Source: Escherichia phage vB_EcoM_PTE-Eco15. Taken from it: a DNA stretch of 64,000 nt. The translations under genes were made by a program, and so were the position numbers. Each line of letters starts with the position of its first letter. Within the stretch, counting starts at the first letter, position 1. The DNA is taken from the sequence record PQ352352.2. One strand, written 5' to 3'. The notes under the pieces are model-generated. The model was given only the letters and a program-made list of their open reading frames with translations. It did not search any database and had not been told where the DNA came from. Below, piece after piece: positions 60,196 through 63,354 of this stretch.

Positions 60196-61619
60196 TTAAT
60201 GTTATCAAAAGTAGTGGTGTTTCTCAGAGCTTTGACCCGCAAAAAATTATTAAAGTTTTATCTTGGGCAGCTGAAGGAACATCAGTAGATCCTTATGAAT
60301 TATATGAAAATATTAAATCTTATCTCCGTGATGGAATGACAACTGATGATATTCAGACTATTGTCATTAAGGCTGCTGCGAATTCTATTTCGGTTGAAGA
60401 ACCTGATTATCAATATGTAGCTGCACGCTGTTTAATGTTTGCTCTTCGTAAGCATGTTTATGGGCAGTATGAACCACGTTCATTTATTGACCATATTTCT
60501 TACTGTGTAAATGAAGGTAAATACGACCCTGAATTATTGTCAAAATATTCAGCAGAAGAAATTACATTTTTAGAATCAAAAATTAAGCACGAGCGGGATA
60601 TGGAATTTACTTATTCCGGGGCGATGCAATTAAAAGAAAAATATCTAGTTAAAGATAAAACCACTGGTCAAATTTATGAAACTCCACAGTTTGCATTTAT
60701 GACTATTGGAATGGCACTGCATCAAGATGAACCTGTTGATAGACTAAAACACGTTATTCGTTTTTATGAAGCAGTATCTACTCGACAGATTTCATTACCA
60801 ACTCCTATTATGGCTGGATGCCGTACTCCGACTCGACAGTTTAGTTCATGCGTTGTTATTGAGGCAGGTGATTCGCTGAAGTCTATCAATAAGGCTTCTG
60901 CTTCAATTGTTGAATATATCTCTAAACGCGCTGGAATTGGAATTAACGTAGGTATGATTCGTGCTGAAGGTTCTAAGATTGGCATGGGTGAAGTACGCCA
61001 TACTGGTGTTATTCCTTTTTGGAAACATTTTCAGACTGCTGTTAAATCATGCTCACAGGGTGGAATTCGTGGCGGCGCTGCTACTGCTTATTATCCTATT
61101 TGGCATTTGGAAGTTGAAAATCTTCTCGTTTTGAAAAATAACAAAGGCGTAGAAGAAAACCGCATTCGTCATATGGATTATGGTGTTCAGCTGAATGATT
61201 TGATGATGGAACGATTCGGAAAGAACGATTATATTACTTTGTTCAGTCCGCATGAAATGGGTGGCGAGCTTTATTATTCTTATTTTAAAGACCAAGACCG
61301 TTTCCGTGAATTATACGAAGCAGCAGAAAAAGACCCTAATATTCGTAAAAAGCGTATTAAAGCCCGTGAACTGTTTGAATTGCTCATGACTGAACGTTCA
61401 GGAACAGCAAGGATTTATGTGCAGTTCATTGATAATACGAATAACTATACTCCGTTTATTCGTGAAAAGGCACCTATTCGTCAGAGTAACTTGTGTTGTG
61501 AAATTGCTATTCCAACAAATGATGTGAATAGCCAACAAACCCGTTTAATCAAAATTAAGAAGTCGGATGTAGCTAAGTTTTATGAAGCTAATCCTGGTGG
61601 TATAATTCAAAGCAAATAA
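60186..61619 (+). CDS. nrdA: Ribonucleotide reductase large subunit NrdA, N-terminal fragment
   Basis: 477 aa; aligns with E. coli NrdA from N-terminus through catalytic SNLCCEIAIPT; then 29 non-homologous codons and a stop. Confidence 0.85.
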   Translation: MQLINVIKSSGVSQSFDPQKIIKVLSWAAEGTSVDPYELYENIKSYLRDGMTTDDIQTIVIKAAANSISVEEPDYQYVAARCLMFALRKHVYGQYEPRSFIDHISYCVNEGKYDPELLSKYSAEEITFLESKIKHERDMEFTYSGAMQLKEKYLVKDKTTGQIYETPQFAFMTIGMALHQDEPVDRLKHVIRFYEAVSTRQISLPTPIMAGCRTPTRQFSSCVVIEAGDSLKSINKASASIVEYISKRAGIGINVGMIRAEGSKIGMGEVRHTGVIPFWKHFQTAVKSCSQGGIRGGAATAYYPIWHLEVENLLVLKNNKGVEENRIRHMDYGVQLNDLMMERFGKNDYITLFSPHEMGGELYYSYFKDQDRFRELYEAAEKDPNIRKKRIKARELFELLMTERSGTARIYVQFIDNTNNYTPFIREKAPIRQSNLCCEIAIPTNDVNSQQTRLIKIKKSDVAKFYEANPGGIIQSK

Positions 61620-61664
61620 AGTACACAGACCGTTAATAAATAATCCATAACAAGAGGAAAAGTT

Positions 61665-62375
61665 ATGGATTATTCTAAAATTTACAATAACCTTATTTCT
61701 AAAGCTAAGAACAGAAAATTAGATTGCTATACCGAATCACACCATATTATACCTCTGTGTATTGGTGGTTCTGATACAAAGGAAAACCTGGTAGATTTGA
61801 CACCAGAAGAGCATTACATAGCTCATCAATTATTAGTAAAGATATATCCAGATAATCATAAATTGATATTTGCCGCTAATATGATGTGTGTTTATTCTGA
61901 AGATAATATTGAACGAAAGAATACCAATAAACGCCATGGGTGGCTTAGAAGAAAATTGGCTATTTCTGTATCTGAAAATAATAAAGGCAAACCAGCTTGG
62001 AACAAAGGTATTCCTATGTCTCCAGAAGTTAAATCTCGACTTCAAACATCTTGGGTGTTTACATTTCCGGATGGTCATGAGGAAATTCATCGAGGTCTTA
62101 ACGAATTTTGTAAAGAGCATAATTTAAATCCATCTGCAATGTCAGCCGTTTGTAAAGGTAAACGGTCGCATCACAAAGGATTTAAGTGTAAGAAATTGGA
62201 TAAGATTTCAGAGCTTGATAATTTAGTTTTCGTCAGTAAACCTCATCCAAAGGGATTAAAACCCCATAACTTAATTGCTGTAAAAATAAACGGTATAGAA
62301 TATCAATCAATACATCGAGCATCTAAAGCTTTAGGAATTACTAGAAAAAAGGTAGAAGAATTAAATGAATATTGA
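61665..62375 (+). CDS. HNH homing endonuclease (Mob-like), inserted within nrdA
   Basis: 236 aa; HNH motif ESHHIIPLCIGGSDTKENLVDLTPEEHYIAH; NUMOD-like and C-terminal HTH-like segments; RBS AAGAGGAAAAG. Confidence 0.8.
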   Translation: MDYSKIYNNLISKAKNRKLDCYTESHHIIPLCIGGSDTKENLVDLTPEEHYIAHQLLVKIYPDNHKLIFAANMMCVYSEDNIERKNTNKRHGWLRRKLAISVSENNKGKPAWNKGIPMSPEVKSRLQTSWVFTFPDGHEEIHRGLNEFCKEHNLNPSAMSAVCKGKRSHHKGFKCKKLDKISELDNLVFVSKPHPKGLKPHNLIAVKINGIEYQSIHRASKALGITRKKVEELNEY

Positions 62376-63354
62376 TTATGAATTTGTAGATGAATTTTAC
62401 GAAGATGATGAGTATACTACAATAGAAGTTATTGAAAACAAGGGAGAAGTGGGGCTTTGTACCCTTAGCGCATTTGTGTTGGATAACTTCGATTGGCAAG
62501 ACCAAGATAAAATTAATGAATTGGCAGAAGTTCAAGTTCGTGCTCTTGATAATCTTTTGGATTACCAAGGATATCCAGTTCCTGAAGCAGAAAAAGCTAA
62601 AAAGCGTCGTAATCTTGGCGTAGGTGTTACTAACTATGCAGCTTGGCTGGCAAGTAACTTTGCTTCTTATGAAGATGCTAACGATTTAACACATGAACTA
62701 TTTGAGAGATTACAGTATGGACTCATTAAAGCATCCATTAAGCTCGCCAAAGAAAAAGGACCTTGCGAATATTATTCAGACACTCGTTGGTCTCGAGGCG
62801 AATTACCTATCGACTGGTACAATAAAAAGATTGACCAAATCGCAGCTCCAAAATACGTTTGTGACTGGTCGTCGCTGCGGGAAGACCTTAAGCTCTTTGG
62901 CATCCGTAATAGCACATTATCAGCACTTATGCCATGTGAGTCATCTTCCCAAGTTTCTAACAGTACAAACGGTATCGAGCCTCCACGTGGACCAGTCTCT
63001 GTTAAAGAATCAAAAGAGGGCTCCTTTAATCAGGTCGTGCCCAATATTGAGCATAACATAGACCTTTATGATTATACATGGAAATTAGCTAAGAAAGGTA
63101 ATAAACCTTATCTTACGCAGGTAGCTATTATGCTGAAATGGGTATGTCAATCAGCTTCAGCGAATACATACTATGACCCGCAGATTTTTCCAAAAGGAAA
63201 GGTTCCAATGTCAATAATGATTGATGACCTTTTGTATTTTTGGTACTTTGGTGGAAAAAATTTCTATTATCATAATACCCGTGATGGTTCTGGTACTGAT
63301 GATTATGAAATAGAAACTCCAAAAGCTGAAGATTGTTCATCCTGTAAATTATGA
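62365..63354 (+). CDS. nrdA: Ribonucleotide reductase large subunit NrdA, C-terminal fragment
   Basis: 329 aa; from residue 27 (GEVGLCTLSAF) aligns with E. coli NrdA from about residue 457 to the C-terminal CxxC tail; first 26 codons non-homologous. Confidence 0.8.
   Translation: MNIDYEFVDEFYEDDEYTTIEVIENKGEVGLCTLSAFVLDNFDWQDQDKINELAEVQVRALDNLLDYQGYPVPEAEKAKKRRNLGVGVTNYAAWLASNFASYEDANDLTHELFERLQYGLIKASIKLAKEKGPCEYYSDTRWSRGELPIDWYNKKIDQIAAPKYVCDWSSLREDLKLFGIRNSTLSALMPCESSSQVSNSTNGIEPPRGPVSVKESKEGSFNQVVPNIEHNIDLYDYTWKLAKKGNKPYLTQVAIMLKWVCQSASANTYYDPQIFPKGKVPMSIMIDDLLYFWYFGGKNFYYHNTRDGSGTDDYEIETPKAEDCSSCKL

Follow-up and report, generated by a model that had tools for sequence, protein, structure and literature searches.

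A 64,000-nucleotide (nt) stretch of DNA from the T4-like Escherichia phage vB_EcoM_PTE-Eco15 (PQ352352.2), hereafter the window, contains the gene encoding ribonucleotide reductase's large subunit, nrdA, in two pieces with a gene for an HNH homing endonuclease between them. An earlier reading made from the letters of the window (the sequence-only reading) had reported this split, and its observation is correct: the three open reading frames (ORFs), nrdA-a, the HNH ORF and nrdA-b, all lie at the coordinates it had given (Table 1). A spacer of 45 nt separates nrdA-a from the HNH gene, the start of nrdA-b overlaps the stop of the HNH gene by 11 nt, and nrdB begins at 63407, directly after nrdA-b as had been described. 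Two stop codons divide nrdA-a from the HNH ORF despite their common frame, and the frame of nrdA-b differs. The ribosome-binding site that had been attributed to the HNH ORF is present as the Shine-Dalgarno (SD) sequence AAGAGGA, 7 nt upstream of the ATG. Of 666 matching phage records, 34 share this layout of nrdA-a, HNH gene and nrdA-b (the cassette), with identities of 88-98.6%.

Alignment with intact nrdA, a check that the sequence-only reading had suggested, was run with the genes of T6 and vB_EcoM_F1 and defines the limits of the insertion. Window positions 60186..61533 correspond to nt 1..1348 of the intact gene with 98% nt identity, and positions 62446..63354 (from 62443 by eye) correspond to nt 1357..2265 with 97-98% identity; about 910 nt stand in place of two codons, P450-D451, of intact T4/T6-type nrdA, and near the insertion the substitutions A452G and I454V turn AEI into GEV. 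Mapped on intact nrdA, the split point falls between the equivalents of C439/E441 and C462, and the catalytic residues are all kept across the two fragments. The nrdA-a fragment comprises the ATP-cone, an all-alpha domain, the barrel's first half and, in SNLCCEIA, the C439/E441 equivalents; it matches Pfam families PF03477, PF00317 and PF02867 (profile positions 1-221). The nrdA-b fragment contains the second half of the barrel (PF02867, profile positions 219-523), the C462 equivalent (Cys32, in GLCTLSAF) and the C-terminal CSSC. Each fragment also carries a segment foreign to NrdA at the broken end, here called the a-tail and the b-tail. The non-NrdA extension of nrdA-a to a stop at 61619 is as previously noted and consists of 28 codons plus the stop, and nrdA-b indeed rejoins NrdA at GEVGLCTLSAF after 26 non-NrdA codons.

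Table 1. Features of the split nrdA locus in the window, with raw ratios of nonsynonymous (pN) to synonymous (pS) differences per site where calculated (aa, amino acids).
Feature	Position	Strand	Description	Raw pN/pS
nrdA-a (NrdA N-terminal fragment)	60186..61619	+	477 aa; ORF list	
nrdA fragment cores			synonymous sites near saturation	0.23-0.39
Minimal transferred unit	61520..62458	+	a-tail, spacer, HNH gene and b-tail, with nrdA flanks of ~12 nt (left) and ~15 nt (right)	
a-tail	61533..61619	+	28 basic non-NrdA codons QQTRLIKIKKSDVAKFYEANPGGIIQSK plus stop; missing from intact nrdA	0.23-0.60 (C-terminal half varies)
Late-promoter-like box (T4 type)	61635..61642	+	AATAAATA vs consensus TATAAATA; in 5' arm of hairpin	
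RNA hairpin, 13 bp	61639..61674	+	-16.3 kcal/mol, z = -2.3; predicted fold	
HNH ORF (MobE-type, free-standing)	61665..62375	+	236 aa; ORF list	0.28-0.54
SD-like AAGGTAG for nrdA-b	62349..62355	+	inside 3' end of HNH gene; read from sequence	
nrdA-b (NrdA C-terminal fragment)	62365..63354	+	329 aa; ORF list	
b-tail	62365..62442	+	26 acidic non-NrdA codons MNIDYEFVDEFYEDDEYTTIEVIENK; missing from intact nrdA	0.20-0.27 (four closer comparisons)

The HNH protein aligns over its full length with MobE of Aeromonas phage Aeh1 (45% identity over 227 aa, E = 2e-57), which is the next-best full-length match in the phage collection after the 34 cassette-bearing records, and a search with the endonuclease protein returns full-length homologues intermediate between the window and Aeh1, their identities graded from 67% down to 50%. 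It also matches PHROG 655 (homing endonuclease, 7e-59) and PF22083 at 37.7 bits, above the cut-off, with PF01844 (HNH) below the cut-off, and alignment to PDB sequences places residues 21-54 on the HNH motif of McrA and residues 82-175 on I-HmuI. The 3' half of the gene (61995..62364), presumed to encode the DNA-binding part, exists as two alleles that are ~80% identical in nucleotides, compared with 99% for the 5' half; which allele is present does not depend on whether the background is that of Tequatrovirus or of Mosigvirus, and F2 falls in between (85%).

The mobE gene of T4 lies between nrdA and nrdB, as the sequence-only reading had correctly stated. The T4/T6 gene shares with that of the window the nrd operon neighbourhood and an N-terminal HNH nuclease domain (49% identity to T6 MobE), but it is intergenic, leaves nrdA intact, creates no tails and has an unrelated C-terminal half. 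The window gene, being inside nrdA and alignable to T6 MobE over its N-terminal 104 aa only, is not a T4-type intergenic mobE. A second ORF between nrdA-b and nrdB, in the position of T4 mobE, is observed in IME537 (L007 3555..4286), L017 (4169..4810) and L023 (2219..2995); a hint of an endonuclease-type domain is seen only in the L017 ORF, as a faint NUMOD3 match, and the nrd operon of some cassette-bearing phages may hold two endonuclease genes at once.

In the Aeh1 cassette, located at 41.5-44.6 kb, nrdA-A (473 aa), mobE (237 aa) and nrdA-B (323 aa) follow one another, the spacer being 46 nt long and the overlap 14 nt; no nrdA lies beside td in the 175-225 kb region examined. The two systems have in common the interrupted gene, the loop between the C439 and C462 equivalents (Aeh1 Cys431 and Cys31), the gene order, near-identical gene sizes, an HNH gene overlapping nrdA-b, a basic a-tail and an acidic b-tail homologous to those of the window, and a hairpin predicted to block initiation of endonuclease translation. 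They differ in that Aeh1 belongs to Cinqassovirus, whereas the carriers considered here are Tequatrovirus and Mosigvirus coliphages, and in that the nrdA flanks of the window are of T4 type, with 58% and 49% aa identity to those of Aeh1. Judged by the endonuclease, the tails and the matching layout, the element in the window is a homologue of the Aeh1 nrdA-a/mobE/nrdA-b cassette, beyond analogy, and the proposal of the sequence-only reading that a free-standing HNH homing endonuclease divided NrdA as in Aeh1 is supported on each of these counts. All eight metagenomic homologues examined are likewise flanked by nrdA-a on one side and nrdA-b on the other, the gene sizes resembling those of the window wherever the contig shows the whole gene.

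The experimental results on a split nrdA of this kind come from Aeh1. According to Crona et al. (2010; PMC3045599), the Aeh1 NrdA fragments associate even without the tails, and the split enzyme is fully active. Deletion of tail sequence lowers the activity ~2000-fold and prevents the fragments from forming either the (a/b)2 dimer of heterodimers or, with NrdB, the holoenzyme; the mutant in question lacked the first 18 codons of NrdA-b, compared with a b-tail of 26 aa in the window. The same authors give isoelectric points of 10.4 and 3.8 for the Aeh1 tails and report peptides of both tails in the mature proteins of infected cells, the N-terminal peptide of NrdA-b having been identified by mass spectrometry.

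The tails of the window are likewise oppositely charged: the a-tail (QQTRLIKIKK...) is rich in K with a net charge of about +5, and the b-tail (MNIDYEFVDEFYEDDEY...) is rich in D and E with a net charge of about -9. Within the BLAST matches to Aeh1, the a-tail aligns as RLIKIKKSDVAKF (window) with KMLFKVKKSEVDKF (Aeh1) and the b-tail as FYEDDEYTTIEV (window) with VYEDEEYTTVEI (Aeh1). An alignment of ten sequences (the window, Aeh1 and eight metagenomic cassettes) reveals a common a-tail core, L[IVF]K[IV][KR]Kx[DE][IV]xxF, and a common b-tail motif, YE[FI]VxEFYED[DE]EYTT[ILV][EQ][IV]. On the evidence of these alignments, both tails of the window are homologous to the Aeh1 tails, and the finding of Crona et al. 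(PMC3045599) that database searches with the Aeh1 tail sequences gave no significant matches no longer holds. In tblastn with the b-tail peptide, the low-complexity filter masked the acidic part, and the matches reflect only the conserved LCTLSAF. When the 60 N-terminal aa of NrdA-b, a short query of low sensitivity, were searched against the whole library, two matches were obtained and no unsplit NrdA with tail-like inserts. Three remoter NrdA-b-like proteins (P0131, P0135 and P0138; 50-53% identity) have longer acidic extensions at the N-terminus, in which a DDEY/DDDY motif stands directly before the conserved (E/P)(I/A)ALC(T/V)L, and the tail family may thus reach past the ten compared cassettes.

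An imperfect 21-nt repeat at 61569 and 62386, which the sequence-only reading had considered a possible recombination scar, exists at these positions with 16 of 21 nt identical (p ~0.03 by shuffling of the two tail regions). Its interpretation as an insertion scar does not stand, because both copies lie inside the tails and the limits of the cassette, obtained by comparison of phage backgrounds, are farther out, ~50 nt outside the left copy and at least 50 nt outside the right copy. Read as protein, the repeat corresponds to a [DV]-V-x-x-F-Y-E pattern weakly visible in both tail families.

Four cassette-bearing coliphages, AV111, ZQ3, PTE-Eco05 and F2, have a Mosigvirus-type nrdA with cores 74-83% identical to those of the window, whereas identity to the window reaches 96-100% in the a-tail, the spacer, the HNH gene's 5' half and the b-tail (98-99% for the a-tail in Mosigvirus backgrounds). 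Marker-by-marker comparison of these four split genes with the intact nrdA of a Mosigvirus (ST0) places the left switch point at 61518-61522 in all four, and the right switch point at ~62458 in AV111, ~62465 in PTE-Eco05 and 62490-62520 in F2. The occurrence of a near-identical cassette, tails included, in diverged nrdA genes indicates that the tails move together with the endonuclease. Near-identical cassettes in diverged backgrounds argue for recent lateral transfer, and a fixed core with flanking tracts of variable length matches the pattern that homing with co-conversion produces. A further arrangement is seen in Escherichia phage UFV-AREG1 (KX009778.4; L012 19..1720), in which the upstream nrdA ORF reads across an intact, endonuclease-free junction (AEIGLCTLSAF...LDYQG) after which a second start at KAPIRQSNLCC leads into the a-tail, the HNH gene and nrdA-b; this partial duplication of ~200 nt may be either a recombination intermediate or an artefact of assembly from a mixed population.

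In the cores of the tails, mean pS is 0.74, near saturation, and mean pN is 0.15. These cores had been chosen by conservation, and pN/pS was accordingly recounted on whole regions (Table 1). The nrdA cores give 0.23-0.34 in the comparison with the b-tail, which is at the same level. The low ratios show purifying selection on the protein encoded by each part, namely the two NrdA fragments, the two tails and the endonuclease.

Candidate control elements accompany the endonuclease and nrdA-b genes. In the T4-type late-promoter-like box upstream of the HNH gene, ATAAATA is invariant in all seven cassettes aligned, with a perfect TATAAATA in three. The predicted hairpin holds the SD sequence of the HNH gene (61652..61658) in its loop and the AUG (61665) in its 3' arm; over the seven cassettes 96.6% of cells are paired, with compensatory changes at three pairs, a level of pairing reached by 0/500 shuffles, and slid controls are 30-47% paired. 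The Aeh1 hairpin, in contrast, pairs the SD sequence itself. For I-TevI and Aeh1 mobE, a late promoter and a hairpin have been reported to control endonuclease expression (PMC2988022). By the same logic, read-through early transcripts of the window phage would fold the hairpin, bury the start codon and silence the endonuclease, and the candidate late promoter within the 5' arm would give late transcripts unable to fold it. For nrdA-b, SD-like sequences (GAGG, AGGT or AGGAG) are found by eye 5-13 nt upstream of the ATG in 10/10 cassettes, within the terminal part of the HNH gene, which fits independent translation of NrdA-b. A scan for sigma-70 promoters and terminators gave the same counts as shuffled sequence and nothing useful at the cassette.

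Several other explanations of the locus have to be weighed. The ~910-nt insert could be a group I intron with an HNH ORF, comparable to the T4 nrdB intron with I-TevIII, in which case splicing would restore a single NrdA and the tails would be chance frames. Group I introns are indeed present in td, nrdB and nrdD of T4-like phages, that of td being within the window; ~200 nt of the insert lie outside the HNH ORF, and the U at 61529 and the G at 62442 would permit an in-frame NDVN-GEVG join. However, a covariance scan of the ~1-kb stretch 61480..62500 detects no Intron_gpI (RF00028) match at E <= 10, in agreement with the statement in the sequence-only reading that no group I core could be recognised. 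Scanning 57000..64000 as one 7-kb stretch missed the td intron too, and that negative was discarded in favour of narrow stretches, on which the td intron is detected as a positive control (RF00028, 42.5 bits, E = 3e-9, 59065..59295). Moreover, the insert outside the HNH ORF is in frame with the nrdA fragments and conserved as protein, unlike a non-coding ribozyme: both tails are kept as protein in ten cassettes with synonymous sites near saturation, the start codon of nrdA-b and its own SD-like sequence are conserved, and the Aeh1 tail peptides persist in mature proteins of infected cells (PMC3045599). An intron is therefore very unlikely. At 58310..59330 the td gene itself has a group I intron with an ORF for the GIY-YIG endonuclease I-TevI (58459..59196); a further 5' piece matching RF00028 was found at 58375..58454 on a 1.2-kb stretch.

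It is also improbable, if slightly less so, that insertion of the endonuclease killed nrdA, leaving decaying remnants while the phage uses the host reductase. In favour, T4 nrdA is non-essential in standard hosts, but both fragments are full-length in the 34 phage records and in the metagenomic cassettes where the contig covers them, raw pN/pS is low in the fragment cores with synonymous sites near saturation, and all catalytic residues are retained. The purifying selection described above argues against a pseudogene as well as against an intron, and the Aeh1 homologue is fully active (PMC3045599). Alternatively, the tails might be halves of a very reduced split intein that joins NrdA-a to NrdA-b by protein trans-splicing. 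Fractured nrdA genes with split inteins exist (PMC2677866), NrdA C-fragments that start with a C-intein at C439 were found in the protein search, and Crona et al. named a degenerate-intein origin as one possibility (PMC3045599). Against this, both Aeh1 tails persist in separate mature polypeptides (same source), neither fragment has an intein or Hint Pfam domain, the a-tail begins with Q rather than C, S or A, and the b-tail ends in ENK followed by G, with no HN plus C/S/T junction. At 54 aa in total, the tails are also too small for a Hint fold. The conclusion of the sequence-only reading that the element is not an intein is upheld by the stops and the change of frame between the parts, the short tails and the missing Hint domain, and trans-splicing is accordingly most improbable. 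That the split arose in sequencing or assembly, through a chimeric join or a frameshift for instance, has a negligible probability; the odd partial duplication at this locus in the related record UFV-AREG1, possibly an assembly problem, would favour it, but the identical layout occurs in 34 independently sequenced phage records and recurs in many metagenome contigs. Translational bypass or frameshifting across the gap was rejected, the gap being ~900 nt long and containing a complete conserved gene.

The locus in the window very probably belongs to the family of MobE-split nrdA cassettes, of which that of Aeromonas phage Aeh1 was the first to be described. A mobile unit of ~0.94 kb occupies the loop between the NrdA active-site strands, after C439/E441 and before C462, comprising in order a segment coding for the basic tail, the 45-nt spacer, the MobE-type HNH gene and a segment coding for the acidic tail. 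By homology with Aeh1 and the experiments on it (PMC3045599), the two polypeptides are presumably made in the window phage and would assemble without RNA or protein splicing, the oppositely charged tails presumably being required both for the (a/b)2 large subunit to form and for NrdB binding. Purifying selection on the tails and fragments lends this indirect support. In mixed infections the endonuclease would cut intact nrdA alleles near the insertion site, and repair would copy in the whole cassette plus short flanking tracts. Homing of this kind would explain the patchy distribution of the cassette over Tequatrovirus and Mosigvirus.

Some points weigh against this explanation. The role assigned to the tails comes from Aeh1, a relative with just 45% identity in MobE. 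The late-promoter box of the window carries one mismatch to TATAAATA, and since the 3' arm of the hairpin is coding and seven sequences were compared, the conservation of the hairpin could be partly protein-driven. In addition, T4 nrdA is dispensable in laboratory hosts, and the presence of the genes is not by itself proof of strict functionality.

Comparable arrangements are known for other selfish elements. In the split topoisomerase encoded by T4 genes 60 and 39, a Mob-type HNH gene, mobA, likewise lies within the gene of an essential enzyme, and the split products have conserved C- and N-terminal extensions and reassemble (bioRxiv 10.1101/2022.08.31.505936); the target gene is a different one, and the mobA element has a translational bypass signal, to which nothing comparable is seen in the window. 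Group I introns of T4 that contain homing endonuclease genes (td/I-TevI, nrdB/I-TevIII) resemble the cassette in placing an endonuclease gene inside a gene of nucleotide metabolism and in the reported logic of late promoter and hairpin (PMC2988022), but the window insert has no detected ribozyme core, and its flanks are translated and conserved as protein. Inteins of nrdA, contiguous or split (Dassa et al. 2009, PMC2677866), are also selfish elements near the catalytic cysteine that repair their own damage. They do so with a Hint fold and covalent protein splicing at C439, whereas the window has tails of 28 and 26 aa located ~11 residues downstream of C439, with no splicing signatures.

Two further observations concern inteins in this region of NrdA. 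Seven NrdA C-fragments of 345-365 aa (P0124 from Yersinia phage TG1, P0125, P0132, P0141, P0177, P0190 and P0223) begin with a C-intein (...DILVHN) followed by C439xEI, and resemble products of fractured nrdA genes of the split-intein kind, with the break ~11 residues upstream of the MobE site. In the contig ERZ14207129 NODE_16 (ENA; L018 607..2451), nrdA-a has 614 aa and includes a contiguous intein that ends VHN/C at the catalytic C439, 12 residues before the MobE split, which places two selfish elements in one active-site loop.

The Aeh1-type split nrdA has been known since 2007, when it was described as genes-in-pieces (Friedrich et al. 2007, as cited in later work), and the window is a further example; in GenBank the pieces in coliphages are already annotated as a homing endonuclease and two nrdA genes. 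A 2022 preprint, citing unpublished data, mentions several other myoviruses with such insertions and conserved extensions, and the advance here is accordingly one of documentation rather than discovery. A literature search found no paper on the coliphage members, the homology of the tails or the boundaries of transfer.

Split genes that work without splicing are rare, and Aeh1 has long been presented as the sole case for nrdA. The arrangement is instead that of a family, which includes ~5% of the T4-like phage records matching the locus, at least two coliphage genera and many diverged metagenomic phages. Conservation of the tails and their travel with the endonuclease favour regarding the tails as a component of the mobile element that offsets the damage of its insertion. 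The chances are about even that the HNH gene and the two tail segments form one self-contained mobile unit carrying its own repair in the shape of portable, oppositely charged assembly peptides, an idea supported by the movement of the unit with its tails between backgrounds and by the family-wide conservation of the tails. The system is now available in genetically tractable E. coli phages, in which homing crosses and tail mutagenesis are easy. If the unit is self-contained in this sense, widely diverged nrdA genes in different phage genera and hosts would be open to its invasion at the active-site loop, with neither intron nor intein needed; the tails would then amount to an evolved, transferable device for protein complementation, as opposed to a chance fusion in one phage, and might serve other split proteins too.

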